Assembly: GCA_049599475.1 (NCBI GenBank)
Contig: JBMYOQ010000036.1
Location: 1 to 41,789 of the forward strand
DNA: 41,789 nt
From: Opitutales bacterium
Lineage (GTDB): Bacteria; Verrucomicrobiota; Verrucomicrobiia; Opitutales; JABSRG01
Direction: 5' to 3'
Numbering within the stretch: position 1 is the first letter of the stretch; every line of letters begins with the position of its first letter. Under the pieces are notes generated by a model that had not been told where the DNA came from, ran no database searches, and saw only the letters and a program-made list of their open reading frames with translations. Of this stretch, positions 14,859 to 30,589 are shown piece after piece. Position numbers and translations under genes: made by a program.

Positions 14859-16139
14859 GTGCTCTGGTTTTATCGCATTATATACATCCCTTTCCTTATT
14901 TGTTCCGCGCCCTACTATCTTTATCGCATGATGAAGCGCGGCGGATACGGTGAGGATTTCCAGCACCGTTTCGGGAAATACGGGAAGCACCCCGACCCCA
15001 CAGGGGACAAGAAACGCATCTGGATACAGGCTGTGAGCGTGGGTGAGCTACAGGCGATCAAACCCTTGGTCGAGCAGCTCAAGGATGGTGGTAACTATTG
15101 GATAGCGGTCACCACAACCACCAGCACAGCTTACCGGATTCTGCAGAAAGACTTTTCGGCGATCAGCGATTTCCGTGGTTATTTTCCTCTCGATTTCCTT
15201 CCATTCATCAAGCGCGCGTGGAAGCAAATTCGTCCAGACACCGCGATACTTATGGAGAGCGAGCTTTGGCCGGAGCACATGTATCAAGCGAAACGCGCGG
15301 GCGTGCCTCTTCTATTGATCAACGCCCGCATGTCGGACCGCTCGTTCAAGCGCTATTCAAAGCTACGGTTTCTGACGGTGTTTATGACGCGCTACATTTC
15401 CGCAGTCGCTGCGAGTTCGCAGGTGGATGCAGATCGGTTTAGGTCACTCGGAATCCCAAAGCAGCGAATCGCAGTCGCTGGGAATCTAAAACTAGACAAA
15501 GATATTCAACCCCGGCTGTCAGATTCGGAAATCAACCAGCTAAAACGCGAAATGGGATTTTCCGAAAACGCACGGGTTATCCTCGGCTCCTCCACCTGGC
15601 CCGGAGAAGAGGCCATGCTCTGTAGAATTTTTAATCAGATTAAAACCCGTCACCCCGAAGCCCGGCTTCTCATCGTCCCGCGCCATGCAGAACGGAAATC
15701 GGAGCTACAAGAAAAACTCCCAGAGTTTGCGCTGAAAACGCACTTTCGATCGGATTCGAAAACCGCCGACTCAACTACCGAGCTCTACATAGCAGACACC
15801 ACGGGAGAGCTCCCCATGCTCACCCAAATTGCCGACCTCGCTTTCATTGGCAAAAGTATGCCCCCTCACAGCGAGGCACAATCCATGATCGAACCCGCCA
15901 TCCTCGGGATACCAGCCCTCATCGGCCCAGGATACTCGAATTTCAAACCGATCGTCGAAGGACTCCTCCAAGCAGGCCTCATCGAATCGGTTGCCGACGA
16001 AGAGCATCTCGCAATTTCCATCACCCAAAAGCTCGCCGAAGCCCCCGACCGCAGCCCCTACAAAACCCGCGCACAATCCTGGCACCTCGCCAACAAAGGC
16101 TCCCTCAAGCGCACCTTAGAGCAAATAGAGACTGCCTAA
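14859..16139 (+). CDS. waaA: 3-deoxy-D-manno-octulosonic acid (Kdo) transferase
   Basis: IWIQAVSVGE, FPLD, MESELWP, INARMSDRS, GNLKLD, IVPRHAER, DTTGEL. Start probably GTG 14859 (ORF track gives 14823). Confidence 0.93.
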   Translation: MLWFYRIIYIPFLICSAPYYLYRMMKRGGYGEDFQHRFGKYGKHPDPTGDKKRIWIQAVSVGELQAIKPLVEQLKDGGNYWIAVTTTTSTAYRILQKDFSAISDFRGYFPLDFLPFIKRAWKQIRPDTAILMESELWPEHMYQAKRAGVPLLLINARMSDRSFKRYSKLRFLTVFMTRYISAVAASSQVDADRFRSLGIPKQRIAVAGNLKLDKDIQPRLSDSEINQLKREMGFSENARVILGSSTWPGEEAMLCRIFNQIKTRHPEARLLIVPRHAERKSELQEKLPEFALKTHFRSDSKTADSTTELYIADTTGELPMLTQIADLAFIGKSMPPHSEAQSMIEPAILGIPALIGPGYSNFKPIVEGLLQAGLIESVADEEHLAISITQKLAEAPDRSPYKTRAQSWHLANKGSLKRTLEQIETA

Positions 16140-16171
16140 ACCTCACATCCGAGGATGCTCCCCAATAAGGG

Positions 16172-16208
16172 ATTCAACAATAAATAGTCAGACTATTTAT
16201 TGTTGAAT
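16172..16208. repeat. Perfect 37-bp palindrome (18-bp arms, 1-nt centre), REP-like candidate
   Basis: ATTCAACAATAAATAGTC-A-GACTATTTATTGTTGAAT; the arms are exact reverse complements, and the right arm recurs 17/18 at 29258-29275. Confidence 0.9.
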
Positions 16209-16268
16209 AAACACTCGATCATTCTGTGAGCTTGATGCTGGGGAGGATTGGTCTTTGGATTTCTACGA

Positions 16269-16859
16269 ATGGCAAAGAAGGCAATATTGCTCATCATCTC
16301 TGGACCCGCGGGTAGTGGTAAGACCACCCTGTGCGATCGTCTACTCGAGGAATTCGCTCCTGCTGTGCAGCGCGTAGTCACATCGACTACTCGCGATCCA
16401 CGACCCGGCGAAGTCAACGAGCGGGATTATTACTTTTTCAGCGTCTCGGAGTTTGAGCAATTAGAGTCGCAGGGTGCTTTTTATGAGACCGCCAATGTCC
16501 ATGGCCGACGCTACGGAACACTCAAGCGCGAGGTGCACCGCAAGTTGAGTGATAATATCGACTGCCTTTTGAATATAGACGTCCAAGGTGCTGTGGCATT
16601 TTTTGAATCGGCCAAGTCGGACCCCTTGCTCGCGGGTCGGATCCACTCCGTTTTTATTATGCCGCCCGATTTGGAAACCTTAAAGGCGCGCATTCTAGCT
16701 CGAGGCTCTGTAGACGAGGGTGAACTCGCCCGGAGATTAGAATCTGCTGAGATGGAAATCGGATATGCAGATCGCTACGAACAGATATTGAACACCTCCA
16801 CTCGCGAGGCGGACTGGGAGTTCATAAAGAATTACTACACTTCCCGGAAAGCCGACTAA
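16269..16859 (+). CDS. gmk: Guanylate kinase
   Basis: ISGPAGSGKTT, TTRDPRPGE...DYYF, VHGRRYGT, IDVQGA, FIMPP. Confidence 0.95.
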   Translation: MAKKAILLIISGPAGSGKTTLCDRLLEEFAPAVQRVVTSTTRDPRPGEVNERDYYFFSVSEFEQLESQGAFYETANVHGRRYGTLKREVHRKLSDNIDCLLNIDVQGAVAFFESAKSDPLLAGRIHSVFIMPPDLETLKARILARGSVDEGELARRLESAEMEIGYADRYEQILNTSTREADWEFIKNYYTSRKAD

Positions 16860-16887
16860 GCCCTTTTACCCAGAGCGAGGCGGTCCG

Positions 16888-17163
16888 CTAAGATTTTTTC
16901 GATCGGTACAAATCGTCGAATGTCCAATCCTCGGGAGCCGGCAAAGACTTGTAGTCCGGACGCTGAATTTCGACAGCATCTACATTGATCACGGGTTTTC
17001 TCACCCGACGTTCCGGAACCGGTCTGATCTCAGTAGAACTCCCCGATGGCTTTCCTGGCAACAAGACTTTCACGCGCGCACTGGTAGTAACGATTCGATA
17101 GATGTTACCTATCGAGACGAATACCAATCCAAGCGCACAAAGCTGTATTACCCATGAATCCAT
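16888..17163 (-). CDS. Small hypothetical membrane protein
   Basis: ORF from MDSWV with an N-terminal hydrophobic helix and a Pro/basic tail; divergent from the sigma54 activator. Confidence 0.6.
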   Translation of the reverse strand: MDSWVIQLCALGLVFVSIGNIYRIVTTSARVKVLLPGKPSGSSTEIRPVPERRVRKPVINVDAVEIQRPDYKSLPAPEDWTFDDLYRSKKS

Positions 17164-17205
17164 TTCTATTTCAAGATATGCATGTTTCTGGCGACATTTC
17201 AATCT

Positions 17206-17227
17206 TTGTAATGCAGTATCATTACAA
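17206..17227. promoter_or_regulatory. Inverted-repeat operator candidate
   Basis: TTGTAATG-N6-CATTACAA, perfect 8-bp arms, in the divergent intergenic region. Confidence 0.5.
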
Positions 17228-17245
17228 GCGATTCGGCATTCTCAT

Positions 17246-17258
17246 TATCAATAATTTG
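17246..17258 (+). promoter_or_regulatory. IHF-like binding site
   Basis: TATCAATAATTTG matches the WATCAANNNNTTR consensus exactly. Confidence 0.4.
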
Positions 17259-17328
17259 CCTCGCTAATCCCTTCTTTTCATGCGATGGATTTTGATATAA
17301 CAATGCAGGTGATCCCTTCTCTCCAGCC

Positions 17329-18795
17329 TTGATTCTCCCGAAAGACATTTCTTCAAGCACCCGAGTCCGTCTATTGAGCGAACGTCCTCAAAAGCTCTGC
17401 CTAGAGCATCTGAGAGACTCAGGGTTGCGCGTCGAGATGCTGCTCCCTGAGGATATTGAGGGCATCGAACCTGACTCCCTGAACGTCACTTACGTCGTTC
17501 CTTCGGAGTGGGCGCTCGATCCACGATGGCCGTCAATCCGTGTTCAGCTCGCGCGTTCGTGCAGGTATTATGTCGTCATTGGTGACCATCTGAGCACCCG
17601 GGAAATCGTCGCCGCGACCCGCGACGGTGCCCACGATGTGATCGACTTGCGCGACACCCAACAGCGCGTCACCGATGCCATTGAAAATGCCGCTCGAAGC
17701 CAGCAGCTTTGGTGGCAGCTCTATGGAGGGCAGTCGATTGTGGATGGCGAATTTCTGGTCGGACGGTCGAGCGCGATGTCAAACCTGCGAGAGATCGTTC
17801 AACGCGTGGGTCCGACAAACGCCACAGTTCTCATTTCAGGAGAATCTGGCACAGGAAAAGAGCGCGTTGCCCAGGCACTTCAAGCAAGCCATGGAAGCGG
17901 CCCCTTCGTGATTCTCAATTGCGCAGCCATTCCTCCCGATCTACTCGAGTCAGAGCTTTTTGGTGTAGAAAAAGGAGCTTACACGGGGGCAGTCACCCAT
18001 CGAAAGGGTCTCGTCGAGGAAGCAAGTGGTGGCACTCTATTTCTCGATGAAATTGGAGAATTGAGCCTTTCGCTTCAGCCCAAGCTTCTCCGTTTCCTAG
18101 AGACCCATGTCGCTCGTCGCGTGGGCAGCAATCGCGAGTATAAAGCAGATGTTCGAGTCATTTCAGCGACCAATCGTGATTTACGCGTCGAGGCCGATGC
18201 AGGACGCTTCCGCCCCGACCTATATTACCGCCTGGCGGAAGTCGTAATCAACACGATCCCCCTGCGCCAGCGCCTTGAGGACATTCCAGAACTCGGGAAA
18301 ACATTTATTTCCATCGCAGCCGAACGCCTGGGTAAGAATTTCGAAAGCCTCGAGCCTGAGCTCGTCTTTCAGTTTCAGCAGTATGACTGGCCTGGAAATG
18401 TCCGCGAGTTGAAGCAAACAATCGAGCGTCTCGCGATCCACTATGATGGGCCCGTAATGCGCGCGGGCTGGTGGCAAGCACCAGAGCCCATTCAAAGCCC
18501 TGCACAGCCCCCTCGCCCGGAATCGACGACCACACCATCGGCGTTTTCTCAACCTAATACACACCAGGCTGCGCCGGTGAACACCGGGCCAGAATCCCCC
18601 ATTTATGCGGCTCCTGTGACGACTATGCCTCAACCCGTTCCCCAGGCAATTAATCGCCCTCTAAATAAGAAGGAGCGTTTTGCCCTAGCGCGGAATTTGA
18701 TCGAACAGAGCGGCGGAGACCTCAGCTGGGTCTGCGCTCAAATGGGCATTCACCCCACCACCCTTTATCGCTGGAGGAAAGAGGGGAAAGTCTAG
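17329..18795 (+). CDS. Sigma54-dependent transcriptional activator (AAA+, Fis-type HTH), degenerate receiver-like N-terminus
   Basis: GESGTGKE, ESELFGVEKGAYTGA, LFLDEIGE, VISATNRDL, FRPDLYYRL, WPGNVREL, C-terminal MGIHPTTLYRW. Start (TTG) uncertain. Confidence 0.92.
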   Translation: MILPKDISSSTRVRLLSERPQKLCLEHLRDSGLRVEMLLPEDIEGIEPDSLNVTYVVPSEWALDPRWPSIRVQLARSCRYYVVIGDHLSTREIVAATRDGAHDVIDLRDTQQRVTDAIENAARSQQLWWQLYGGQSIVDGEFLVGRSSAMSNLREIVQRVGPTNATVLISGESGTGKERVAQALQASHGSGPFVILNCAAIPPDLLESELFGVEKGAYTGAVTHRKGLVEEASGGTLFLDEIGELSLSLQPKLLRFLETHVARRVGSNREYKADVRVISATNRDLRVEADAGRFRPDLYYRLAEVVINTIPLRQRLEDIPELGKTFISIAAERLGKNFESLEPELVFQFQQYDWPGNVRELKQTIERLAIHYDGPVMRAGWWQAPEPIQSPAQPPRPESTTTPSAFSQPNTHQAAPVNTGPESPIYAAPVTTMPQPVPQAINRPLNKKERFALARNLIEQSGGDLSWVCAQMGIHPTTLYRWRKEGKV

Positions 18796-18796
18796 C

Positions 18797-19843
18797 CTAC
18801 CACACCAGGGGCCACGCGGGCTCAAATGATAATTCATCGAGTGCCCCGTCGACAATGCCTTGCGGATTCGCCCACGCGGCAAACGCAATCATTGTAGCAT
18901 TATCACCGGTGTGACGCCCCTCAGCCATCAGCAAAGGACAACCTGATTTGCGCGCTAGCGATTCCATCTCGGCTCGCAATGTCCGGTTGTTCGCCACGCC
19001 GCCTGAAAGACCAATACTCTTTATCCCCGGAAAAGCTTTCAGTATCTGCTCTGTTTTCACTCTCAATTGACGAATCACCGCGTATTGGTAGCTAGCGCAG
19101 AGGTCGGGTAAATGATCTTCGATCACCGAATCGGGTGTCTTTTCGAGGAAATAGCGCAAACTCGTCTTGAGGCCCGAGAAGGAAAAGCGGCGATCGTTCT
19201 TCGATTTGGATGCAAGGGGAAACTCGTGCCAGGTCCGATCTCCCTCCCGTCCCACTCGCTCAATTTGTGGGCCTCCAGGGTAAGGCATTCCGAGCAATTT
19301 TGCTCCCTTATCAAGCGCCTCGCCTGCGGCATCATCAACTGTTTCGGCCAAAATGCTCACCGCTTGGCTCTCGTCGACCATGGCCAAAATCGTATTTCCC
19401 CCTGAGACAATCAGCCCCAGGTGCGGAAGTAGGCTCGAATACGTTTTCGACCAATCACTCCGGCTTTCCACCCATACCGGAATGAAGGGAGAGTACAAAT
19501 GGCCACGTAAATGATTCACCCCGACCACAGGCACGTCCAATGCCACGGCAAGCGACTTCGCAAACGCGATACCTAGAGCCAAGCACCCCGCCAGACCAGG
19601 TCCTCGCGTCACCGCTATCGAAGTCACTTTATCCAATACCTCCGGGCAGGCCTGCTTCAATTGCTCGAAAACATAGGCAAAATTCTCCAAGTGTGCCCGG
19701 CTCGCAAGATCAGGAACAACGCCCCCATACTCTCGATGAAGGTCGATTTGACTAGCCACAATCTCCGCGACAATCACGCCCTCAATCGGATCGACCAACG
19801 CCAAACTCGACTCATCACAGGAACTCTCTACACCCAAAATCAC
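18797..19843 (-). CDS. tsaD: tRNA N6-adenosine threonylcarbamoyltransferase
   Basis: ILGVESSCDES, YGGVVPDLASRAH, NHLRGH, VSGG, DDAAGEALDK, FSFSGLKT, GGVANN, DNATMIA. Confidence 0.96.
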   Translation of the reverse strand: MILGVESSCDESSLALVDPIEGVIVAEIVASQIDLHREYGGVVPDLASRAHLENFAYVFEQLKQACPEVLDKVTSIAVTRGPGLAGCLALGIAFAKSLAVALDVPVVGVNHLRGHLYSPFIPVWVESRSDWSKTYSSLLPHLGLIVSGGNTILAMVDESQAVSILAETVDDAAGEALDKGAKLLGMPYPGGPQIERVGREGDRTWHEFPLASKSKNDRRFSFSGLKTSLRYFLEKTPDSVIEDHLPDLCASYQYAVIRQLRVKTEQILKAFPGIKSIGLSGGVANNRTLRAEMESLARKSGCPLLMAEGRHTGDNATMIAFAAWANPQGIVDGALDELSFEPAWPLVW

Positions 19844-19874
19844 CCCGACACAAGGGACTGAGCGCCGAGAGATG

Positions 19875-20975
19875 TCAACGCGAGGCTATCAGTGGCAAAT
19901 CCAAGGCTGCCTTCACCCAAATATCCGAGAGTAAGGAATCTAGAGCATTCCCATCCCAGGGCTCTCGCGTTTTCACTCGAATCCCAGGCTTCAAGCCGAA
20001 GCCTTCGATCTTCCCTCCGTTCGGAAGAAAAAATTCTCCAGTAGTTATCTTGGCCCCACCTTCACCGGAAAAAGAGTAGATGCTCTGTATCGTACCCTTT
20101 CCGAAGGATCGGGTGCCCACTAGTTCCGCATCGCAGCGCTCTCTCAAAATTCCCGCCAGAGCCTCAGCCGAACTCGCCGTGTTTTGATCTATTAAGACCG
20201 CGATCTTCAGGCCTGGAAAACGATTCTGCTGCCGCGCCCGAACAAACTGGTTCTTATCATTCTTAAAACGATGAACCTTCAGCATAAGATCTCCCTGGGA
20301 TACAAAGATATCGGCGATCTCATGCGCGGCACTAAGCAGACCTCCTGAATTCCCCCGCAAATCCAGCATCAAAAAGGCAGTCTCCAGACCCGAAATCACG
20401 CACTGAAATTCCGACGCGGTCTGTTCACCAAACTCATGAATTCGCACATAACTGAAATTCTCATCCAAACGCTCCAAAGGCGACACCGTTTGCTGCAATA
20501 CCTCCCCACGCCGTAGCTTCAGTTCTATAGGTTCTCTCGTCTCTCCGCGGGCCAAAATGAGCTCAATGCATGTTCCGGGAGCGCCCCGTAAACGCTCGAC
20601 AACATCCTCCAGATCTAACAAATCGATGCTTTGACCATCGATTCCTGCAATGAGATCCCCGGCCAGAATGCCTGCGCTCTCCGCTGGTGAGCCTTCGAAT
20701 ACCTGAACAACCGTTGCCCCGCCGGTGGCTGCAAGATTTAGACGCACACCAATACCATCGTACTTTTGAGTTAGGGAGCGCTCCACAGACTTCATCTTTT
20801 CACTATTGAACAACATCCGGTGCGGATCACCCGCCCTGGCAGATTCTGCATAGGCCTCAGAAAATGGAATTTCCTCGAGGAGGGGCCGACCGAAGACTGT
20901 AAGTGACGACCCGACTATCAACAAAGCGAGCGAGACTCGCTGGAACCATTGGGAAATATTGACTCGTAATGGCAT
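19875..20975 (-). CDS. S41 C-terminal processing peptidase (CtpA/Prc-like) with PDZ domain
   Basis: GIGV...GSPAESAGI.AGD (PDZ), LDLRGNSGGLL, TASSAE, SFGKGTIQ. Start taken at MPLRV (ORF track gives 21080). Confidence 0.9.
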   Translation of the reverse strand: MPLRVNISQWFQRVSLALLIVGSSLTVFGRPLLEEIPFSEAYAESARAGDPHRMLFNSEKMKSVERSLTQKYDGIGVRLNLAATGGATVVQVFEGSPAESAGILAGDLIAGIDGQSIDLLDLEDVVERLRGAPGTCIELILARGETREPIELKLRRGEVLQQTVSPLERLDENFSYVRIHEFGEQTASEFQCVISGLETAFLMLDLRGNSGGLLSAAHEIADIFVSQGDLMLKVHRFKNDKNQFVRARQQNRFPGLKIAVLIDQNTASSAEALAGILRERCDAELVGTRSFGKGTIQSIYSFSGEGGAKITTGEFFLPNGGKIEGFGLKPGIRVKTREPWDGNALDSLLSDIWVKAALDLPLIASR

Positions 20976-21152
20976 GGTGGGCAGTTTTGGAGAACGAAAC
21001 GAAAGTGAATTTTTTGGATATCTACGCAGCAAAATGCCCGGAATTTCGACGAAACCTTCACTTAAAACAGAGAGGTCCATTTTTTCATTTAAACCTTGCC
21101 AAAGGATTCAGACTCACCTTTTCTCTACTGTTTTTCTTTAAGGAGTAACATC

Positions 21153-21383
21153 ATGTCTAGAATTTGTGCTATCACAGGCAAGCGCCCGGTTTCAGGCGGA
21201 CGCATCATCCGTAAGGGTCAGTCCAAGAAGAGCGGCGGTATCGGGACACACGTTGTCAAGGTAACAAAGCGTCGTTTTCGCCCCAACGTGCAGAGAGTCC
21301 GCGTAAAGCTTCCAAGCGGCCAAGTAAAACGCATGTGGGTCTCGGTCAAGGCCATCAAGGCAGGACTCATCGAGAAGGCCTAA
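21153..21383 (+). CDS. rpmB: 50S ribosomal protein L28
   Basis: MSRICAITGKRP...TKRRFRPNVQ; AAGGAG RBS at 21140-21145. Confidence 0.95.
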   Translation: MSRICAITGKRPVSGGRIIRKGQSKKSGGIGTHVVKVTKRRFRPNVQRVRVKLPSGQVKRMWVSVKAIKAGLIEKA

Positions 21384-21411
21384 TACTTTTCCCAAAAAGA
21401 AGATTATCCTC

Positions 21412-21444
21412 AAAGCTCACCGTAAATAATGGTGAGCTTTTTTT
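21412..21444 (+). terminator. Rho-independent terminator of rpmB
   Basis: AAAGCTCACC-N9-GGTGAGCTTT followed by a T run. Confidence 0.85.
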
Positions 21445-21457
21445 GTGCATGCATTCA

Positions 21458-22564
21458 ATGCCGGCAGCAAACGCCGACCTTATGAAAGCAAGCATGCCAA
21501 GAATCTACACAGCACAGCGTTCATATACATCTTCCCCGTCCTCGGCAGACGAGTGGGCAACGCTAATTGGCGGAATCACGGCAGAGTTTGAGCGTCCACC
21601 AGACCTCTTCTTCACACTAAATGCCCTTCAAAAGACACTACTATTTCGGAGCCAGGACATACAGCAGTTCAGCGAGCACATCGAGGCCGATTCGAGCTCG
21701 ATAACTCGGATCAGAATCGAGATATCCGATAAGCCAGCCCCCGAAGAATCCCCTCTGATAAGGAAATACGTCCGCATCGATGCCACCTCCACACAGGACA
21801 AGAACCACTCGCGCAACCTTAGGATCTATTCGCGCGGAGTCTCCAAGAGCGCTCTCTTTAGGATCGAAAAAGGGGTTATGGAAAACAATGGATCTTCGCG
21901 CAAACGACCAAACGTAACGTATGGCCGGCCATGCGAGGTGATGGCCACCATGATAGATCTCCAAGGATTCAGCGCCTTCTGCGAACGCCCAGAAATCGAA
22001 TCGCCCTACACCTGCGCAGTCGTAGGCGCATTTTATCAAACGACCGAACACTGCTTCGAAACTTTCCCTCCAGATGTTCTAAAAATCCAAGGAGATGGCA
22101 TACTGATGATCTGGAGAAGCGACGCTGAGAATCGCGACTTAATCGCCGAAGTCATTCGCCAAGGCATCAACCGCTTGGACGAGCGCTGGAAGGCATTAAT
22201 CAAGGATCCCCAATTTCACCATGGCGCTCCCTCTGAAATCCGAACAGGCGTTTCATTTGGGCTAGCGAGCAGCCTCACCGATCAAACAGATTTTCTCGGG
22301 CGGCCCATCAATATGGCCTCGCGCATTTCTGATCAATGCGACGGTAACGAAATCCTCTTAGATAGCGCTTTACCCGGAATAAACGAGCAACCGGAAGCCA
22401 TCCAAAAATCCATTACACTGAAAGGTGTCGGAAAGCGAATCGTCTGGAGCCTACCTATTGGATCTTCAAGAGAAGAAACCAAAAACTCCAAGGGAGGAAC
22501 GAAATCAAGCCGGCTTCAACTATCAGAGCTACTCAGCTTGAAATCAAAAATGGCTCCCCGGTAA
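21458..22564 (+). CDS. Class III adenylate/guanylate cyclase domain protein with unrecognised N-terminal domain
   Basis: IDLQGFS, KIQGDGIL, IRTGVSFG, DFLGRPINMASRI, LKGVG. Start uncertain (21449/21458/21482); the ORF-track start overlaps rpmB and its terminator. Confidence 0.85.
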   Translation: MPAANADLMKASMPRIYTAQRSYTSSPSSADEWATLIGGITAEFERPPDLFFTLNALQKTLLFRSQDIQQFSEHIEADSSSITRIRIEISDKPAPEESPLIRKYVRIDATSTQDKNHSRNLRIYSRGVSKSALFRIEKGVMENNGSSRKRPNVTYGRPCEVMATMIDLQGFSAFCERPEIESPYTCAVVGAFYQTTEHCFETFPPDVLKIQGDGILMIWRSDAENRDLIAEVIRQGINRLDERWKALIKDPQFHHGAPSEIRTGVSFGLASSLTDQTDFLGRPINMASRISDQCDGNEILLDSALPGINEQPEAIQKSITLKGVGKRIVWSLPIGSSREETKNSKGGTKSSRLQLSELLSLKSKMAPR

Positions 22565-22624
22565 GGATTCGAACCTCAACTAAATGGACCAAAACCACTT
22601 GTGCTACCATTACACCACCAGGGA
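22551..22624 (-). tRNA. tRNA-Gln (anticodon UUG)
   Basis: TCCCTGG-TG-GTGTAATGGTAGCAC-A-AGTGG-TT-TTG-GT-CCATT...GGTTCGAATCC...CCGGGGA-G-CCA: full cloverleaf with encoded CCA. Confidence 0.96.
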
Positions 22625-22749
22625 CCAGTGAAAAGTTGTAAAGTGTTCCTAAAAATAGATGAGTCAAGCCCCTTTTCCTAACGAATAAGAATTCTCCAAA
22701 ACACTCTGAATCAGGCCTTAAGGAACCTCTGATTCGCAAGAAGGAACAG

Positions 22750-22778
22750 TTGACGTAGGCAGGTGCGTTTCCCACATT
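22750..22778 (+). promoter_or_regulatory. Sigma70-like promoter of pyrH
   Basis: TTGACG-17 nt-CACATT, ending 8 nt before the ATG. Confidence 0.55.
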
Positions 22779-22786
22779 CCATCTCC

Positions 22787-23536
22787 ATGCAAGACGAGTC
22801 GTCCGGTAATCCTTCGCCCAAATATAAGCGCATCATCCTCAAAGTAAGTGGAGAGGCCCTCCTGAACAAGAAGTCAGGTGAGCCCATTGATCGCGATGTT
22901 CTTGAGTCCTTCTGTAAAGAAATCAAAGCTGTCTACGATCTCGGAGTCGAAATCGGGATAGTCATCGGAGGTGGGAACATCTTCCGCGGCCTCAGTGGGA
23001 GCAAGGACCGCGGGATCGATCGTGCCACTGGAGACCACATGGGCATGCTCGCAACTGTGATTAACGGTTTGGCCCTCATGGATTGTCTCGAAAAAATGGG
23101 CGTGATCGTCCGCGTGCAAAGCGCCATCGGAATGGATCGCCTCGCCGAACGCTTCATTCTCCGTCGCGCCATTCGCCACCTTGAGAAAAAGCGCGTGGTT
23201 ATTTTCGTCGCCGGCACGGGCAACCCCTACTTTTCGACCGACACCACAGCAGCGCTCCGGGCCAGCGAAATCGGTGCAGATGTGCTTATGAAGGCAACCA
23301 ACGTGGACGGTATCTACGACAAGGATCCCAACAAATATGACGACGCCGTGAAATACGACGAACTCTCCTACTTGAAAGCCCTTCAGGAGCGACTAAATGT
23401 CATGGACTCTACCGCATTCTCCCTATGCATGGAGAACAAAATGCCGATCATGGTATTTCGCATGAAGGAACCCAGTGCGGTCCTACGCGCGGTAATGGGC
23501 GAACAAATCGGATCGCTCGTAAATTCAGAATCCTAA
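22787..23536 (+). CDS. pyrH: UMP kinase
   Basis: [50 protein letters not shown]. Confidence 0.97.
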
Positions 23537-23576
23537 ATCAACCACCTTTTTTACCCAGACCTAGATCCCCGAAAAA

Positions 23577-24137
23577 ATGGACGCAGACTCAATTATAACT
23601 ACCGCCGAAGAAGGCATGGCTAAGGCTCTCGATTTCACACTCGGAGAATTTGCTTCGATCCATACCGGAAAAGCATCTCCGAGTATGGTAGACGGCATCT
23701 CAGTGGACGTCTATGGCTCTAGCATGAAGCTTCGCGATATCGCAGCGATCACCACACCGGACACCCGCCTGATCATGATTCAGCCCTGGGACCAAGGCGT
23801 GGTTAAGGAGATAGAAAAAGCAATTATCGCGGCGAATATCGGATTTAACCCAAGCGCTATGGGCACATCCATACGCGTCCCCGTACCCGAGCTCAGCCGC
23901 GACCGCCGGCAGGAGCTCGTAAAGGTGGCCAATGGGCATGCCGAAGAAGGGCGAGTCCGCATCCGTGGAGCACGCCGCGACGCAATGGATGGTCTGAAGA
24001 AACTCGAGAAGGAAAAAGAAATTTCGGAGGACGACCGCAAGCGCTACGAGAAGGATGTGCAAAAGCTCACCGACGATCACGTAGCCAAAATCGCATCTTC
24101 CCTTAAGGCCAAAGAACAAGAGCTTCTCACCGTTTAA
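23577..24137 (+). CDS. frr: Ribosome recycling factor
   Basis: IHTGKASP, IQPWD, PELSRDRRQEL, IRGARRD, ISEDD; follows pyrH. Confidence 0.97.
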   Translation: MDADSIITTAEEGMAKALDFTLGEFASIHTGKASPSMVDGISVDVYGSSMKLRDIAAITTPDTRLIMIQPWDQGVVKEIEKAIIAANIGFNPSAMGTSIRVPVPELSRDRRQELVKVANGHAEEGRVRIRGARRDAMDGLKKLEKEKEISEDDRKRYEKDVQKLTDDHVAKIASSLKAKEQELLTV

Positions 24138-24159
24138 TCACGCCAGAAAGACTTCTTTC

Positions 24160-24191
24160 AAAAGCCAGGACCGCAGGTGTCTTGGCTTTTT
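24160..24191 (+). terminator. Rho-independent terminator after frr
   Basis: AAAAGCCAGGAC-loop-GTCTTGGCTTTTT (one G-U pair); ends 6 nt before the proB start. Confidence 0.75.
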
Positions 24192-24197
24192 CTATAA

Positions 24198-25313
24198 ATG
24201 GAATCTATTCGCAAAAATATTCGGCGCATCGTCGTAAAATTTGGCACGGGCATCCTAACAAAAGGTATCGGAGAGCTCGATACCGACCGTATTTTTCATT
24301 TTTGCGACCAGCTCGCTGCAATACGTAAGCTCGGCATCGAAGTCCTCGTGGTTTCGTCTGGATCCATCGGCCTAGGGATGGGCCAACTCAAATTGAAGAA
24401 ACGGCCAACGGAGCTTGCTGTCTCACAAGCCTGCGCAGCAATTGGTCAGAGCATTTTGATGAACATCTGGCGCGACGGATTCGCCAGGCATGGATTCACA
24501 GTGGCACAAGTACTACTGACTCACGACGCGGTTCGCGGCCGTACCCGCCATATCAATACGCGGGATATGATCGATACCCTGCTCGACCGCAGCATCATAC
24601 CGATCATCAATGAAAACGATTCAGTCTCAGTCCAAGAGATTGAATTTGGTGACAACGATACCTTATCCGCATTGGTCACCAGCTTTGCCAAGGCCGATCA
24701 ACTCTTTATCGTTTCGACTGCCCCAGGTTTAATTGACATGCAAGGCACGGGAGAGATTATTCCTGTAGTTGAAGAGATTACTCCTCAAGTCGCAGGCTTG
24801 GCCGAAGGGACTGACTCGCCCACAGCCGTCGGCGGCATGATCAGCAAAATATCCGCAGCAAGACTCGCTACACGCAGTGGCGCTGGTGTCTTCATCACCA
24901 GCGGCAGACGTGAGAACGGCTTAATCGATTGGTTCTCAGGGCCTCAGAATTCCGTCCCAGGCACCCTATTCTTGCCCAGCGGTACCGAAATCGATTCCCA
25001 CAAAAGATGGTTGGCATTTTTCGAATCTCCTGGAGGCACTATCCATGTAGATGCGGGAGCCCGAGAAGCGCTTGAAACCAAGGGCAGCAGCCTGCTCGCA
25101 ATCGGTGTTACCGAAATCGACGGCAGCTTTAAGAAAAAGGCAGTTGTCAATGTCAGCGGCCCAGATGGAGAAGTATTCGCCCGCGGCGTGTCTCAGTTTG
25201 GAAGTCGACAGCTCAAACAAATTCGCGGCCTCGGGTCCGAGAAAATTCAAGATATTTTCCCAAAGTGCACCAGCCCCGAAGTGATGCACCGCGATACACT
25301 CGTTATTCTTTGA
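24198..25313 (+). CDS. proB: Glutamate 5-kinase
   Basis: IVVKFGT, VSSG, AAIGQ, PIINEND, FGDNDTLSA, GGMISK; C-terminal PUA domain (VDAGA...SLL). Confidence 0.96.
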   Translation: MESIRKNIRRIVVKFGTGILTKGIGELDTDRIFHFCDQLAAIRKLGIEVLVVSSGSIGLGMGQLKLKKRPTELAVSQACAAIGQSILMNIWRDGFARHGFTVAQVLLTHDAVRGRTRHINTRDMIDTLLDRSIIPIINENDSVSVQEIEFGDNDTLSALVTSFAKADQLFIVSTAPGLIDMQGTGEIIPVVEEITPQVAGLAEGTDSPTAVGGMISKISAARLATRSGAGVFITSGRRENGLIDWFSGPQNSVPGTLFLPSGTEIDSHKRWLAFFESPGGTIHVDAGAREALETKGSSLLAIGVTEIDGSFKKKAVVNVSGPDGEVFARGVSQFGSRQLKQIRGLGSEKIQDIFPKCTSPEVMHRDTLVIL

Positions 25314-27319
25314 TGACCTCTTTTGCTTCCAGTCCAGGCTTCGACAGCCTCCCCCCGATCGATTTCAAGGCAGAGCTTAATGACGAGCAATTTGAGGCAG
25401 TAACCTCACCTATGGGCCCTGCACTTGTTCTTGCGGGAGCCGGCTCAGGCAAAACGCGCACCCTCACTTATCGCGTCGCTTACCTTCTCAGCCAGGGCGT
25501 GGCCCCTTGGAATATCTTGCTCCTGACGTTCACCAATAAGGCTGCCCGTGAAATGCTTGAGCGTGTCGAAGACCTTACCGGTGTAGATCGACGCCATTTC
25601 TGGGGAGGCACCTTTCACTCGATCGGCCAGCGAATTTTGCGTAAGCACGGCGAATCCGTGGGATTCGAAGCGTCTTTCAACATCATGGATCAGGATGATG
25701 CCAATTCCATGATGAATGCGGTGATCAAGGAGACGGATCCTGCGTTTCTCAAAAACAAGAACCATCCAAAATCCAATGTCATTCACAGCGTAATCAGCTA
25801 TGCTCGCAACACGGGCCAACCCGTCGAGGCTGTCGCAGAAGACAGGTATCCATGGTTGGACAATGTGCCGACGGCGATCGTGCGCTTCAGCAAGGCATAC
25901 GAAAAAAGAAAACGCGCAGAACAGGTAGCTGACTATGATGACTTGCTCACAGAGTGGTTAAAACTCCTGAAAGAAAACGAGGACGCCCGCACTTTTTGCC
26001 AAACCCAATTCAAATGTATATTGGTCGATGAGTATCAAGATACCAACTACATTCAATCCGCGATCATAGACAATCTCACCGGAAACCATAATATCATGGC
26101 TGTGGGTGATGACGCTCAATGTATTTACACTTGGCGAGGCGCTGATTTCCAAAACATCCTAACCTTCCCTGAGCGCCACCCGGGTACCGAAATTTACAAA
26201 ATCCAGACAAACTACCGAAGCTCTCCAGAAATCCTCAGCCTCGCAAACGCAATCCTGGCAAATCAACCTGCAGGAACCGGATACAGTAAAGAGCTTTCAC
26301 CTGTCCGCGACCACGACATTACCCCCGTCATTCTACCTTTCGTGGATCAGCGGCAACAAGCGCGTTGGATCGTAAACCGCCTACGTTCTCTCCAAATGGA
26401 CGGGCAGGACCTCTCTGAGGTAGCTATTTTGTACAGGGCTCACTATCAGGCGATGGATGTCCAAATGGAGCTAGCGCGATCAGATATTCCATTCGTCATA
26501 ACCAGCGGAATACGCTTTTTCGAACAAGCACACATTAGAGACGTCGCAGCTCAATTACGTTTCATCGCCAATGGTCAGGACTCGAGCGCTTTCTTTCGTT
26601 TCATAAAACACCTCCCCAAAGTCGGTGATCGCTCAGCGGAGAGAATATATCAATTTATCGCAAAGCTCGCACGAGACAATGGAGTCGGATCCGCATCCAT
26701 TATGCTTCACAAAAACGTTGTCTCAAAAATTCCGGCAAACGCTCGCGAGGAATACGGCCACCTGGCGAGGACCTTGATCGATGCTGAAACCGCAATGAAA
26801 GACAATGCGTCTCCTGCAACAATCGTCGAACTTGTCATAGAAGGATGGTATCAAGACTTCTTACGTAACCACTACGAAAACTACAGCTCGCGCGAGGATG
26901 ACCTTCAGTCCCTAGTAAATTTCGCCTCACGCTATTCCGACCTAAACGAGCTGTTATCGGAACTAATTTTATTGTCGACGGAAACTGGAAACGACTCACC
27001 CAGTAACGATTCGACGGACAATAAAGTCAGGTTAACTACAGTACACCAATCCAAAGGTCTCGAATTTCCAGTCGTGATTATCATCGGTTGCGCTGACAAC
27101 CTATTTCCCCTCAAGCGGGCAATAGACGACGATAATTTAGATGAAGAGCGCCGCTTATTTTACGTCGCTGTCACTCGAGCGATGAGAGAACTTTTTATCG
27201 CCTACCCTATGATTTCGATCGGAAAAGGCCCGCCCACTCGTTTAACACCTAGCCGCTTCATCAACGAGCTTCCCAGCGACTCGTATGATGTCGTGCGAAC
27301 CCAACAGTCATCATGGTAA
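25313..27319 (+). CDS. UvrD/PcrA/Rep-family ATP-dependent DNA helicase
   Basis: LAGAGSGKTRTL, TFTNKAA, LVDEYQDTN, VGDDAQCIY.WRGA, NYRS, TVHQSKGLEF, EERRLFYVAVTRA; TGATG overlap with the proB stop. Confidence 0.95.
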   Translation: MTSFASSPGFDSLPPIDFKAELNDEQFEAVTSPMGPALVLAGAGSGKTRTLTYRVAYLLSQGVAPWNILLLTFTNKAAREMLERVEDLTGVDRRHFWGGTFHSIGQRILRKHGESVGFEASFNIMDQDDANSMMNAVIKETDPAFLKNKNHPKSNVIHSVISYARNTGQPVEAVAEDRYPWLDNVPTAIVRFSKAYEKRKRAEQVADYDDLLTEWLKLLKENEDARTFCQTQFKCILVDEYQDTNYIQSAIIDNLTGNHNIMAVGDDAQCIYTWRGADFQNILTFPERHPGTEIYKIQTNYRSSPEILSLANAILANQPAGTGYSKELSPVRDHDITPVILPFVDQRQQARWIVNRLRSLQMDGQDLSEVAILYRAHYQAMDVQMELARSDIPFVITSGIRFFEQAHIRDVAAQLRFIANGQDSSAFFRFIKHLPKVGDRSAERIYQFIAKLARDNGVGSASIMLHKNVVSKIPANAREEYGHLARTLIDAETAMKDNASPATIVELVIEGWYQDFLRNHYENYSSREDDLQSLVNFASRYSDLNELLSELILLSTETGNDSPSNDSTDNKVRLTTVHQSKGLEFPVVIIIGCADNLFPLKRAIDDDNLDEERRLFYVAVTRAMRELFIAYPMISIGKGPPTRLTPSRFINELPSDSYDVVRTQQSSW

Positions 27320-27783
27320 CAAAAAGAAAATCACTCTCGTTTATTTTGGTTGGATTACTGTGCGCGTCCGACCTGTTTTCCCAATCCATCCAGACCGTAA
27401 CCACTCGGTATCAGGTCGCGAATGACTTCAAAACCATCTCCTCTTACTTTACAGATGGCGACAACACTGGCCCACGCATAATAAACCGAACTCAAGAAGA
27501 CGACTGGGACGGGCTATATTTTATAATCGAATTCACAGATCGCCCTGAGACTTTCGAAAAAAAAATAAGTGTAGTCATCGACGTACTTACTGCATTCTCC
27601 CCCAAACCCAGACAATATGCGTTCACTCTATCAGAACCTGACACCTTTACCTGGGAAGGATATTTTGGCATTACCGGAACTGACTGGACAGATCAAGAGA
27701 CTCGGCCATTAGCATGGAAAATAAGCATAAAGGACTTCGAAGGAAACTTGATTACTGAGAAACAAAGCTTTCTCTGGAAATAG
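27313..27783 (+). CDS. Hypothetical exported protein
   Basis: 156 aa with a signal-peptide-like N-terminus; overlaps both neighbours, suggesting an operon. Confidence 0.75.
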   Translation: MVTKRKSLSFILVGLLCASDLFSQSIQTVTTRYQVANDFKTISSYFTDGDNTGPRIINRTQEDDWDGLYFIIEFTDRPETFEKKISVVIDVLTAFSPKPRQYAFTLSEPDTFTWEGYFGITGTDWTDQETRPLAWKISIKDFEGNLITEKQSFLWK

Positions 27784-28364
27784 TGGATTGGGATTCTCGA
27801 TACAGAAACGGAGACACTCCTTGGAATAAAGGATATGAAACTCCAGCTCTTCACGAGATAAAGGATCGCTATCCACTATCGGGCGAAATTTGGGTACCCG
27901 GAGCAGGTATTGGACACGATGCGAGGTATATTGCCAACACATTCCCGGATACACATGTTACAGCATTTGACATTTCTGAAACCGCTCTTTCGCAAGCAAT
28001 TGAGTTCAATTTGCCTGAAAACTTAACCTTCGAAATAGCGGATATCTTTAAATTAGATAAAGATAGAAAATGCGACATATGGTTTGAACACACCTGCTTC
28101 TGCGCCATAGATCCATCACTCCGAAATGCTTACAGACAAGCTACACTATCTCATATTAAAAAAGATGGCCTGTTCACTGGGGTATTTTTTGTAGGTCAAG
28201 ATTTTGATTCCAAGGATGGTCCACCCTTTTTCTCGACAGAGCGAGAAATCGAAGACCTCTTTGGAGACAATTTCAGAATCCTGGATAAATGGATGCCTTC
28301 AAAATGTTACCCGGGCAGAGAAGGCGAAGAGATGATTTACGTTTTCCAGAAAGATCGACCTTGA
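27783..28364 (+). CDS. TPMT/thiol (halide)-methyltransferase-like SAM-dependent methyltransferase
   Basis: W..RY..GDTPW, VPGAGIGHD, DISETA, FEHTCFCAI.P..R, GPPF. Confidence 0.88.
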   Translation: MDWDSRYRNGDTPWNKGYETPALHEIKDRYPLSGEIWVPGAGIGHDARYIANTFPDTHVTAFDISETALSQAIEFNLPENLTFEIADIFKLDKDRKCDIWFEHTCFCAIDPSLRNAYRQATLSHIKKDGLFTGVFFVGQDFDSKDGPPFFSTEREIEDLFGDNFRILDKWMPSKCYPGREGEEMIYVFQKDRP

Positions 28365-28391
28365 GCTCCTAGCAATATTCCCAAGAGACGA

Positions 28392-29246
28392 CTAGGGACG
28401 CTTAATTTTCCTCAGCGTAAACATTTCAACATCGGTATCTCCGCTCCACGGCACTGGCCTGAATTTATTCTTACGGTGGGGCAGCAGTTTCTCACACAAT
28501 CTTCGGACAAATTCTGCCGACCCCAAGCAACCCGCTCGAATCAACCTGAGATCACGGTGCACCTTCCAATCCTGATCGGCGTTCAAGAAGCCAAAGGTCT
28601 CATCAACAATGCCCCACAGGGTTCTCAAAATCTGTTTAAACTGCGGATCGCCCATTTTTGCCCGGCCCAACGAAGACCATCGATAATCCTCGGCATGCTC
28701 AACGATCCCGGCCCTTACCGGATTCAGCTCTATATATGCCGCAACCATTCGGAGCACTTTTGCAGAATTTTCGATCAACTGAGAGCGAAAAGTAGACTCC
28801 CACAGCGTCCCGACGTTGTCATGATTCTTATTATACCAGATGGTAAAACGCTGCTTTAGTTCTTTCATAAAAATGGCCAGAGAACCCATTCGCGCACACA
28901 AACGCTTGCGAGCAATCACAGCCTCGCTCCCTCCTTCATTCAAAATCGACTCTAGACGATCGGGAGAAAGCGTCCGCTCAGAAATCCATTCATTCCGAGG
29001 GTAAAGCCTCCGATACCGAGCGATCAATTCAGCATCGGACTCGGGTAAAACCTGCGAACGAAAGCGAATCAAGAGGTGAAAATGATTCGACATCACACAA
29101 AAGGAAAGCAGCTCCACCCCAGAAAACGCCGCCTGACGCCGAAGAACATCGATAAACTTACGCTTCCCCTCGTCATCAAAAACAAACTTTCGAAAAGCCA
29201 CCCGACTCACCACATGATAAGCCTCATCATCATTCAACATTCGCAT
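28392..29246 (-). mobile_element. REP-associated tyrosine transposase (RAYT; Y1 HUH, IS200-superfamily)
   Basis: YHVVSR, FCVMSNHFHLL (HUH), FMKELKQRF, LWESTFRS, YIELNPVRAGIV...YRWSS (catalytic Tyr); intact 284-aa ORF. Confidence 0.9.
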
Positions 29247-29249
29247 ATT

Positions 29250-29281
29250 AATAGTGCGACTTTTTATTGTTGAATTGTCAA
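29250..29281 (-). promoter_or_regulatory. RAYT promoter region containing a copy of the 16172-16208 palindrome arm
   Basis: Minus strand reads TTGACA (29281-29276), then ATTCAACAATAAAAAGTC-GC-ACTATT, then AAT-ATG. Confidence 0.65.
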
Positions 29282-29308
29282 ACTGATAATCTTGCTCATT
29301 TTGAGGCG

Positions 29309-30589
29309 ATGGCAGAGAAAGATTTAGGGAAGATTATCGAGACTATGGCGCGTAAGGCGCGCGCGGCTTCTTTGGTTTTGGGGGTTTCTTCGACTCGTCA
29401 GAGAAACGAAGCGCTCGGATTTTTGGCGGAGCTTATTCGCTCGCGCGCGGCCGATCTTAAGACAGCGAATGCCAAGGATATCGAGTTCGCGCGCAACGCG
29501 GATCTTTCTGAGTCTATGATTGATCGGCTTATTCTAAATGATAGCCGAATCGAGGGGATGGCCCAGGGAGTAGAGCAGGTCGCTGAGTTGGACGATCCTG
29601 TGGGAACGATTCTTGATTCGACTACACGTCCAAATGATCTTCGCATAGATAAGGTGCGTGTGCCAATCGGGGTGATTGGGATTATTTACGAATCTCGCCC
29701 AAACGTCACTATCGACTGCGCAGTTCTCTGCCTCAAATCAGGGAATGCGGCTATTCTGCGCGGGGGTAAGGAAGCCTTTCATTCAAACACTTTCTTGGCT
29801 GGCTTGATTCAAGAGGCGCTTGGAAAGGCCGGCATTCAAGAATCAGCGGTGCAGCTTGTGCCTACAACCGACCGTGCAGCTTTGAACCACCTGTTAGAGC
29901 TTGATGAGTACGTACACTGCATCATTCCCAGAGGCGGGGAGAAATTGATTCGATTCGTCAGCGAGAATACACGCATTCCAGTGATCAAGCACTATCTGGG
30001 TGTTTGCGCAGCATACGTCGATAAGGATGCTGATTTTAAGATGGCTGTAGATATTGTAGTAAATGCCAAGGTTCAACGGCCTTCAGCCTGCAATGCTATC
30101 GAAAATCTCTTTATTCACGCCGACATTGCAAAAGACTTTCTTCCCAAGGTAGCAAGCGCCCTTCAATACCACGACGTCGAACTCCGTGTCGATGGTGCAG
30201 CCGTAGCGATTCTGCTTCGTGCATCAGGTGTGACGTTTGAGCCTGCCGAGCAAAATGACCTTTTCACAGAACACTTGGATAAGATTATAACGGTTAAAGT
30301 GGTCAATTCTATCGACGAGGCCATTCAGTCTATAAACAGATACGGCTCAGCGCACTCTGACACGATTATCACGGACAGTTCAGATGCAGCCGAGAAGTTT
30401 ATGAACGGAGTCGACTCCGCCACCGTTTACTGGAACGCCTCCACACGCTTCACTGACGGCTTTGAATTCGGACTTGGCGCAGAGATCGGAATTTCCACCG
30501 ACCGCCTGCATGCCCGCGGCCCCATGGGGCTGAATGAGCTCTGCACTTATAAATTCAAGATCACAGGAACCGGCCAAATTCGCCCATAG
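29309..30589 (+). CDS. proA: Gamma-glutamyl phosphate reductase
   Basis: VPIGVIGIIYESRPNVT, LKSGNA.ILRGGKEA, IPRGG, RPSACNAIE, NASTRFTDG.EFGLGAEIGIST..LHARGPMGL. Confidence 0.97.
   Translation: MAEKDLGKIIETMARKARAASLVLGVSSTRQRNEALGFLAELIRSRAADLKTANAKDIEFARNADLSESMIDRLILNDSRIEGMAQGVEQVAELDDPVGTILDSTTRPNDLRIDKVRVPIGVIGIIYESRPNVTIDCAVLCLKSGNAAILRGGKEAFHSNTFLAGLIQEALGKAGIQESAVQLVPTTDRAALNHLLELDEYVHCIIPRGGEKLIRFVSENTRIPVIKHYLGVCAAYVDKDADFKMAVDIVVNAKVQRPSACNAIENLFIHADIAKDFLPKVASALQYHDVELRVDGAAVAILLRASGVTFEPAEQNDLFTEHLDKIITVKVVNSIDEAIQSINRYGSAHSDTIITDSSDAAEKFMNGVDSATVYWNASTRFTDGFEFGLGAEIGISTDRLHARGPMGLNELCTYKFKITGTGQIRP

Follow-up and report, generated by a model that had tools for sequence, protein, structure and literature searches.

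A perfect 37-bp palindrome between waaA and gmk as a probable solo end signal of a mobile Y1 HUH nuclease family in Verrucomicrobiota

What is a perfect 37-bp palindrome doing in the spacer between waaA and gmk, and what links it to a gene for a Y1 HUH nuclease/transposase 13 kb away? The question is raised by a 41,789-nt stretch of DNA from an Opitutales bacterium (assembly GCA_049599475.1, contig JBMYOQ010000036.1, positions 1 to 41,789), here called the window; the genome that holds it is referred to as G000 and its Y1 protein as P0001. We favour, with a probability of about 0.62, the reading that the palindrome is a solo left-end signal of a mobile Verrucomicrobial Y1 family, at whose sites nicking, strand-displacement synthesis and rejoining would take place. 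Judging from the sequence comparisons presented below, the Y1 gene located 13 kb from the palindrome is the likely source of this copy.

The palindrome occupies positions 16172-16208 (no strand assigned) and consists of two 18-bp arms around a single base, 36 of its 37 positions being self-complementary and the centre base alone unpaired. Its centre reads C-A-G (16189-16191), its G+C content is 8/37, and each arm is made up of a core half-site and an outward-facing TTGAA(T) hexamer resembling a -35 element. It begins 33 nt past the stop codon of waaA (14928-16139, forward strand, Pfam Glycos_transf_N) and is followed by gmk (16269-16859, forward strand, Pfam Guanylate_kin), so that the location given in the earlier note is confirmed. 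In a census of perfect palindromes with arms of at least 12 bp, its arm length was tied second-longest (longest 19 bp) of 56 in the 4.68-Mb genome, and its single-stranded folding gave z-scores of -5.7 and -6.2 against 200 shuffles. A contig from a second study (X2, 16096-16418) has the palindrome with 0 differences, so that it is no assembly artefact; a further run, X1, was excluded from this independent confirmation because it may be the source sample. The distance to the waaA stop is one at which many hairpins lie. Nevertheless, the low G+C content, the lack of any terminator or promoter consensus call at the palindrome and of an Rfam family match, the identity in an independent study and the top motif score in the genome (see below) refute a bidirectional terminator, a chance palindrome or an assembly palindrome as the sole explanation, and leave these possibilities a negligible weight.

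As regards the second site, positions 29250-29275, directly upstream of the Y1 gene, match 16183-16208 at 23 of 26 positions, a figure of the earlier note that we reproduced. The accompanying proposal, that the palindrome is a half-site doubled head to head, has to be abandoned, since the copy at the Y1 gene is itself a whole, degenerate palindrome (33/37 positions) spanning 29232-29275 (no strand assigned) when a 7-nt insert at 29240-29246 is skipped. This insert contains the ATG of the Y1 gene (29246) and splits the copy, whose distal arm coincides with codons 3-5; the chance of finding the distal-arm 8-mer within 12 positions is about 3e-4. The copy can fold over the ATG. The GTAG/GGAG foot of classical repetitive extragenic palindromes (REPs) is lacking on both strands of the two window copies, as had been stated before.

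The upstream regions of related Y1 genes show that such a site is common in the clade. Starting from 182 input loci, 158 were parsed, 150 remained after removal of near-duplicates and 142 had at least 150 nt of upstream sequence. An upstream palindrome, one per locus, was found at 101 of these 142 loci, compared to 4/110 downstream and 2/120 shifted control windows. The clade site has a C-W-G centre with G/C at positions -3 and +3, its arms are rich in A/T, and it mostly lies 90-120 nt before the first conserved codons. GGGWSAS is present in 52 of the 101 sites and the full GGGGWSAS octamer in five, and the window copies retain only the centre of this type of motif. On sequence criteria, the window palindrome is an AT-rich variant of the CWG-centred site of the clade. 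AT-richness as a special trait was rejected, as the AT-type label requires 13 changes on the tree. P0001 falls within an 11-row clade (support 99/96) having AATA-type sites, and a G000 paralog from another protein clade carries a GGGACAG site; as far as these sequences tell, the site variant follows the protein tree rather than the host. The 11-row clade was first taken from a quick tree, and its monophyly is no independent test.

The distribution of the motif points in the same direction. The Y1 clade is present in 55 of 301 genomes of the order. A strict pattern matched two of the 301, the second match lying directly upstream of a clade gene, and a looser pattern matched 24, that is 23 besides G000. 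Nine of these 23 carry G/C at positions -3 and +3; this filter derives from the clade consensus and was introduced once the matches were known. Eight of the nine are clade-positive (Fisher 5e-6 for a base rate of 55/301, kin not being independent), and in the ninth clade fragments occur where contigs end, while the remaining 14 include one clade-positive genome. No match was obtained with the strict long-arm pattern among metagenome and viral contigs, nor with the strict G-type pattern in 251 genomes of the phylum; since both patterns are too specific, these zeros are not evidence of absence. The motif thus co-occurs with the Y1 clade across an order, as the earlier note had suggested checking, and it is neither limited to the two window sites nor shared equally with relatives lacking the gene, a pattern that the note had associated with a host operator. 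An alternative in which an unrelated host transcription factor uses the site as its operator, and also controls Y1 genes, would suit the palindromic form, intergenic position, low copy number and proximity to promoters of the site. It is made very improbable by the near-confinement of the site to clade-positive genomes, by a variant that follows the protein clade within one genome, by flanking host genes without a common function, and by the failure to find the site in G001 or G003 (GGGACAG-type site only, among the sites inspected).

The limits of the mobile unit emerge from within-genome paralog pairs. On the left, shared DNA ends 6-17 nt from the palindrome centre in 26 of 27 pairs. On the right, 19 of the 21 informative pairs lose their likeness between -22 and +24 nt relative to the stop codon, six pairs in which a copy was partial or longer having been left aside; two copy pairs share 173 and 451 nt beyond the stop. 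A right-end repeat is missing downstream of the window Y1 gene, is found at 4/110 loci in the clade, and is present at a G000 paralog on contig C15. From these boundaries, the mobile unit would consist of palindrome, promoter and gene, with one marked end. Separately, a miniature element without coding sequence was observed in genome G043 (L324:2115-2435), with GGGGACGG-type inverted repeats at its two ends; two congeners have a full Y1 element at that locus.

Copies without a gene of their own were sought with a matrix derived from 13 Y1-adjacent sites, which gave 11 matches of at least 20 bits in G000 and 0-1 in two shuffles. The waaA-gmk palindrome scored 36.7 bits with this matrix, second in the genome, and 25.2 bits with a clade-wide matrix, first in the genome. 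Including it, G000 has four orphan loci (five copies). Three of the four lie 5-13 kb from a Y1 site (P 2e-4, 15-kb limit) and two of the four between convergent genes. The site of the neighbouring Y1 gene is the best match for three of the five copies, namely those at waaA-gmk, C9 and C15:54263 (25, 25 and 26 of 33 positions), one copy gives a tie, and the contig of the remaining one lacks a Y1 gene; the C15 upstream and C90 reference rows, being mis-centred, were left out of this comparison.

Could the palindrome instead be the relic of a Y1 element that once lay between waaA and gmk and lost its gene, with symmetry acquired later by hairpin repair? The family is multi-copy and mobile, and the waaA-gmk adjacency is not seen in relatives: gmk is preceded by other genes in those examined, and it was not found in the sole congener (86% complete). 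In addition, AATAAGGGA at 16164-16172 (forward strand; genome frequency 4e-6 per position), which matches the usual outer arm in the clade consensus, abuts the palindrome and might, speculatively, be the remnant of an older G-type site. The strong skew of waaA described below would likewise imply a long-lived site. On the other hand, no Y1 coding remnant was detected near 16.2 kb (tblastn E 0.01), and the orphans cluster near extant Y1 genes and mostly match their neighbour best, which is unexpected for scattered relics. We therefore regard a relic as unlikely.

Two further arrangements of orphan sites were observed. In G000, the region C15:52885-62326 (L226, L098) contains a second DNA polymerase III alpha-type gene, dnaE2-like in our Pfam-based reading, with two orphan sites at its 3' end. 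The C15 Y1 paralog, 5.5 kb from there, is flanked by a site on each side, and its start carries a tandem duplication of 84 nt; a cassette that may serve SOS mutagenesis would thus be bracketed by sites. In genomes G505 and G506 (L210 and L221), an orphan site stands upstream of the same small gene, with a 33-nt tandem duplication in one of them.

Direct duplications at the sites carry information on how the copies might be made. They were defined as exact direct repeats of at least 11 nt whose downstream copy overlaps the outer arm, and were found at 30 of 115 sites versus 8 of 843 control positions, with none on the mirror side only. The 115 sites include non-deduplicated paralogs; after deduplication the counts were 18/87 versus 5/725. 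Starts fall at -10 to -20 from the centre in 27 of the 30, and ends scatter from -5 to +49. The search rule makes short repeats start in this interval, but all 14 duplications of at least 19 nt start at -11 to -20 (P about 2e-8). A fixed 3' end (-5 or 0) had been considered and was dropped, the longer duplications showing the start as the fixed side. The duplications include locus-specific flank, are seen in genomes of one and three contigs, and differ between copies that are 100% identical over the first 240 coding nt. Therefore, we conclude that they arose in place. One end of the GGGGACGG miniature element also carries a duplication, of 69 nt, starting at about -16 (counted on the printed sequence). 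A fixed start with a variable end is as expected from nicking, extension of a 3'-OH and rejoining of a Tyr-held 5' end.

In the mechanism that we propose, the structure recognised by the Y1 protein would be the palindrome, probably extruded into a hairpin whose loop is CWG; the protein would nick about 16 nt 5' of the centre and would hold the 5' end on Tyr171. The host polymerase would extend the free 3'-OH, displacing the old strand, and the enzyme would then join the held 5' end to a new 3'-OH. Joining in place would give tandem copies that start at a fixed point and differ in where they end, synthesis running through the gene would give a new element, and synthesis cut short would leave an orphan of 33-37 bp, approximately the span between the two symmetric nick positions. 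Repetition on both strands would produce an origin-like G/T shift in the flanking genes. A more far-reaching form of this scheme, which we offer tentatively and consider rather doubtful, is that the clade moves by an undescribed one-ended, 5'-anchored copying in which every site, whether solo or not, is a miniature priming point working in two directions. Nicked on either strand some 16 nt ahead of the centre, it would launch strand-displacement synthesis, by which DNA would be duplicated in place and synonymous sites would be altered over several hundred bases of neighbouring housekeeping genes.

Such a G/T shift is observed at both window sites, which lie at switches from C/A to G/T with contrasts of 0.293 and 0.310 (top 0.06% and 0.04% of 90,027 positions). 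Specifically, the G+T fraction at four-fold sites of waaA, in 300-nt bins towards the palindrome, is 0.55, 0.50, 0.28 and 0.16 (z 4.0, top 0.2% of 2788 gene 3' ends), a gradient missing in 3/3 orthologs. Diverging from the Y1 gene is a gene that we read as proA-like (29309-30589, forward strand, Pfam Aldedh), whose synonymous G+T is 0.68 in the first 390 nt versus 0.41 (z 3.6, top 0.4% of 2769 gene 5' ends). In G000, 14 motif-adjacent gene ends, a set that includes the discovery site and Y1 genes, gave a mean z of 1.64 versus 0.26 for 2798 ends (p 3e-4). The effect was also seen in other genomes, where host gene ends adjacent to sites had a mean z of 0.64, 39 of 55 being positive, compared to means of 0.09 at 64 distant ends (p 0.009) and of 0.01 at 15 ends by site-less Y1 genes. 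Orphans in other genomes had positive skew in 14 of 19 cases, versus 6 of 15 chance-type matches. Synonymous sites of neighbouring genes thus shift G/T-rich outward from the site, an effect that is replicated and modest.

Some observations on composition and gene order stand apart from the sites. Gene ends by intergenic TTCATCC 7-mer arrays in G000 have an outward G/T shift with a mean z of 1.11 (n=30, p 3e-4), those by AACCACGAA repeats a mean z of 0.84 (n=33, p 0.013), and those by GTAG-type hairpins a mean z of 0.43 (n=50). Positions C120 ~6770, C77 ~13920 and C5 ~138170 of G000 share a repeat of about 35 nt, which may be a gene-cassette repeat; two of them are the strongest skew switches of the genome. 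Six of the seven testable Y1 clade genes of G000 lie on the locally G-rich, probably leading, strand. In the window, uvrD, two other genes and the Y1 gene separate a proB-like from the proA-like gene (24198-30589).

Is the window Y1 gene itself competent for such reactions? P0001 (28392-29246, reverse strand) is a 284-residue Y1 HUH nuclease/transposase (Pfam PF01797, Y1_Tnp); G000 has nine related genes. Its catalytic residues are intact (H55-F-H57, W149, Y171-x3-NP), with 114 residues between HUH and Tyr, and H55/H57, W149 and Y171-N175-P176 are invariant across 25 aligned proteins. The predicted structure (pLDDT 86.6) has TnpA_REP 4ER8 as its best fold match (Foldseek, E 1e-6). P0001 scores 60.6 bits with the REP_Tyr_transpos profile NF047646 (cut-off 80) and 23.6 with the TnpA_IS200 profile NF033573 (cut-off 55), below the threshold in both cases. 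Pfam finds Y1_Tnp only, with no C-terminal helix-turn-helix, in P0001 and in the full-length L001 protein. P0001 has a short N-terminus, a shortened C-terminal part and a long branch (1.26 versus a median of 0.28), and may therefore be decaying or specialised.

The position of the site relative to promoters bears on a regulatory role. The -35 spacing was evaluated at 63 of 87 loci with an assignable start and -35, using a loose hexamer rule and an imposed range of 30-42. In 41 of the 63, the -35 begins 13 or 21-23 nt past the palindrome centre, and in 55 of the 63 it lies 33-38 nt before the ATG. Predicted in this way, the site usually stands upstream of a leaderless-type promoter in the clade, and because it is upstream of the -35, simple occlusion is less likely in most relatives. 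The layout of the window gene is unusual, with the site between TTGACA and the start and overlapping the start. The TTGACA at 29276-29281 (reverse strand) is the candidate -35 of a leaderless Y1 transcript, 35 nt from the ATG (clade mode 33-38). The earlier note had the motif filling a promoter spacer: the perfect TTGACA beside the motif stands, but no sigma-70 -10 hexamer was found 16-18 nt past it (0 promoters found), so that the spacer is defined by distance alone. Since the site overlaps the start and can fold over the ATG, repression of the window gene by protein binding or by an mRNA hairpin is conceivable, although we hold it to be doubtful; autoregulation, also put forward in that note, appears plausible only for this unusual layout.

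These data also invite the view that the palindrome is a double-stranded operator or activator site of a domesticated Y1 protein, serving autoregulation and a few host genes, with the skew arising from outward promoters. The -35 spacings of 13 and 21-23 nt are about one helical turn apart (in two large clades), TTGA occurs in one or both of the arms, in the window gene and the C15 paralog the site adjoins or overlaps the start, and many G505/G506 orphans lie in divergent spacers, one of them before the same gene in both genomes. However, half of the G000 orphan loci lie between convergent genes, Pfam detects no helix-turn-helix domain, and ordinary divergent spacers are skewed oppositely (mean z -0.92). 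Moreover, an operator leaves the 5'-anchored duplications and the element boundary unexplained. All together, we consider this view quite improbable.

The reading of the palindrome as a solo end signal has to be set against a number of observations that weigh against it. No scoring site was found at 41 of the 142 clade loci, most loci come from assemblies of metagenomes, and the -35 spacing (13 or 21-23 nt) is likewise compatible with a regulatory site in double-stranded form. The only empty allele found lacks a clean junction (about 70 extra nt upstream and 30 downstream), and the duplication starts show no conserved dinucleotide and spread over about 10 nt. As for the skew, gmk has no shift (z 0.2), so that the skew at waaA-gmk is one-sided, and the C9 orphan has none (z 0.4 and -0.3). 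Averaged, the shift is small (+0.047), and an initial, less refined test across the clade, made without strand correction and superseded by the within-gene test with controls, was not significant (22/36, p 0.11). Outward transcription could produce the same polarity, and a comparable shift is seen at the unrelated TTCATCC repeats but not at GTAG-type hairpins. Finally, because P0001 is truncated and long-branched, the active protein may instead be one of the six further paralogs that have AATA-type sites.

For the clade, present in 55 of 301 genomes of the order, the analysis defines the end sequence and the element boundary and predicts the window in which the nick would fall, so that cleavage assays can be planned directly on this basis. 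Natural specificity pairs would be available in the motif variants, which follow the protein clades. If the skew footprint is real, the sites would act as sources of local mutation in host genes, and HUH target sites could be located by looking for skew switches.

How does this family relate to known systems? The earlier note had proposed a non-classical pair of a REP-associated tyrosine transposase (RAYT) and a REP-like element. The pairing is retained, as the palindrome belongs with this Y1 clade, but the site appears related to a known end motif, the GGGACAG/GGGGWSAS motif of TIRYTs, and is low-copy. In Di Nocera 2013 (PMC3733652), TIRYT ends are described as carrying the GGGGWSAS motif, and a repeat overlapping the 5' end of the gene ('5'ov') is reported; TIRYT/TIRtron corresponds to subclass 2.1 in Quentin 2018 (10.1101/279083). 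The clade resembles TIRYT/TIRtron in its class 2 Y1 protein (Y---NP) and small dispersed families of end copies, and, at part of its sites, in an end motif close to GGGGWSAS. It differs in having one upstream self-complementary site rather than inverted repeats at both ends, in the lack of a detected helix-turn-helix domain in its proteins, and in an AT-rich variant without a G run. A classical two-ended TIRtron, with 27-bp perfect inverted repeats starting with a GGGGTCA motif, occurs in G000 at C141:3479-4492.

The nearest named relatives are Alteromonadales proteins with 27-31% identity. Subclass 2.3 is described in Quentin 2018 (10.1101/279083) as lacking an identifiable REP-like flank. 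Judged against that description, the clade is similar in the HUH-to-Tyr spacing (114 residues versus 110 in four Alteromonadales proteins, with a 55-residue insert), in the length of about 325 residues among relatives and in several copies per genome. It is dissimilar in that the 10-residue beta1-alphaA insert of the four Alteromonadales proteins is absent from the clade alignment, and in being Verrucomicrobial with a conserved palindrome; a term search of the supplements of that work found no Verrucomicrobia named. Among L325-L328, Alteromonadales plasmid records with subclass 2.3-type genes, a AGACACCC-like motif stands upstream in 2/4 and in a looser form in a third; it resembles half of the clade site and has a poor matrix score. 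In the literature searched, which included few subscription papers, we found no account of a single-ended Verrucomicrobial clade, its duplications or a skew at its sites, and the terminal inverted repeat sequences in the additional files of Di Nocera could hold a related motif.

The IS91 protein is a Y2 enzyme, and IS91/ISCR are one-ended rolling-circle elements. With these and with IS200/IS605, the clade would share HUH chemistry, one fixed and one variable end, and cleavage 5' of a hairpin. Its protein is a class 2 Y1, neither the Y2 of IS91 nor a short TnpA_IS200, and its fixed end lies upstream of the gene, with no second hairpin. With the REP/RAYT systems (TnpA_REP) it shares the fold (4ER8) and dispersed intergenic palindromes concentrated near the gene. 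Unlike them, it has no GTAG/GGAG foot, four orphan loci rather than hundreds, a gene that is not flanked on both sides and is itself copied around the genome, and, in P0001, a score below the NF047646 cut-off.

In conclusion, the HUH motif, the conserved Trp, Y---NP and the modelled TnpA fold identify P0001, at the level of sequence and predicted structure, as a class 2 (TnpA_REP-like) Y1 HUH protein, and by sequence the clade departs from the defining features of classical REP systems, of two-ended TIRtrons and of strict subclass 2.3. A nick-prime-rejoin scheme has been proposed for TnpA_REP in the amplification of bacterial interspersed mosaic elements (BIMEs; PMC3333891, legend to Fig. 7B). 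This scheme matches the clade duplications, which look like an in-genome record of a model so far proposed for BIME amplification.

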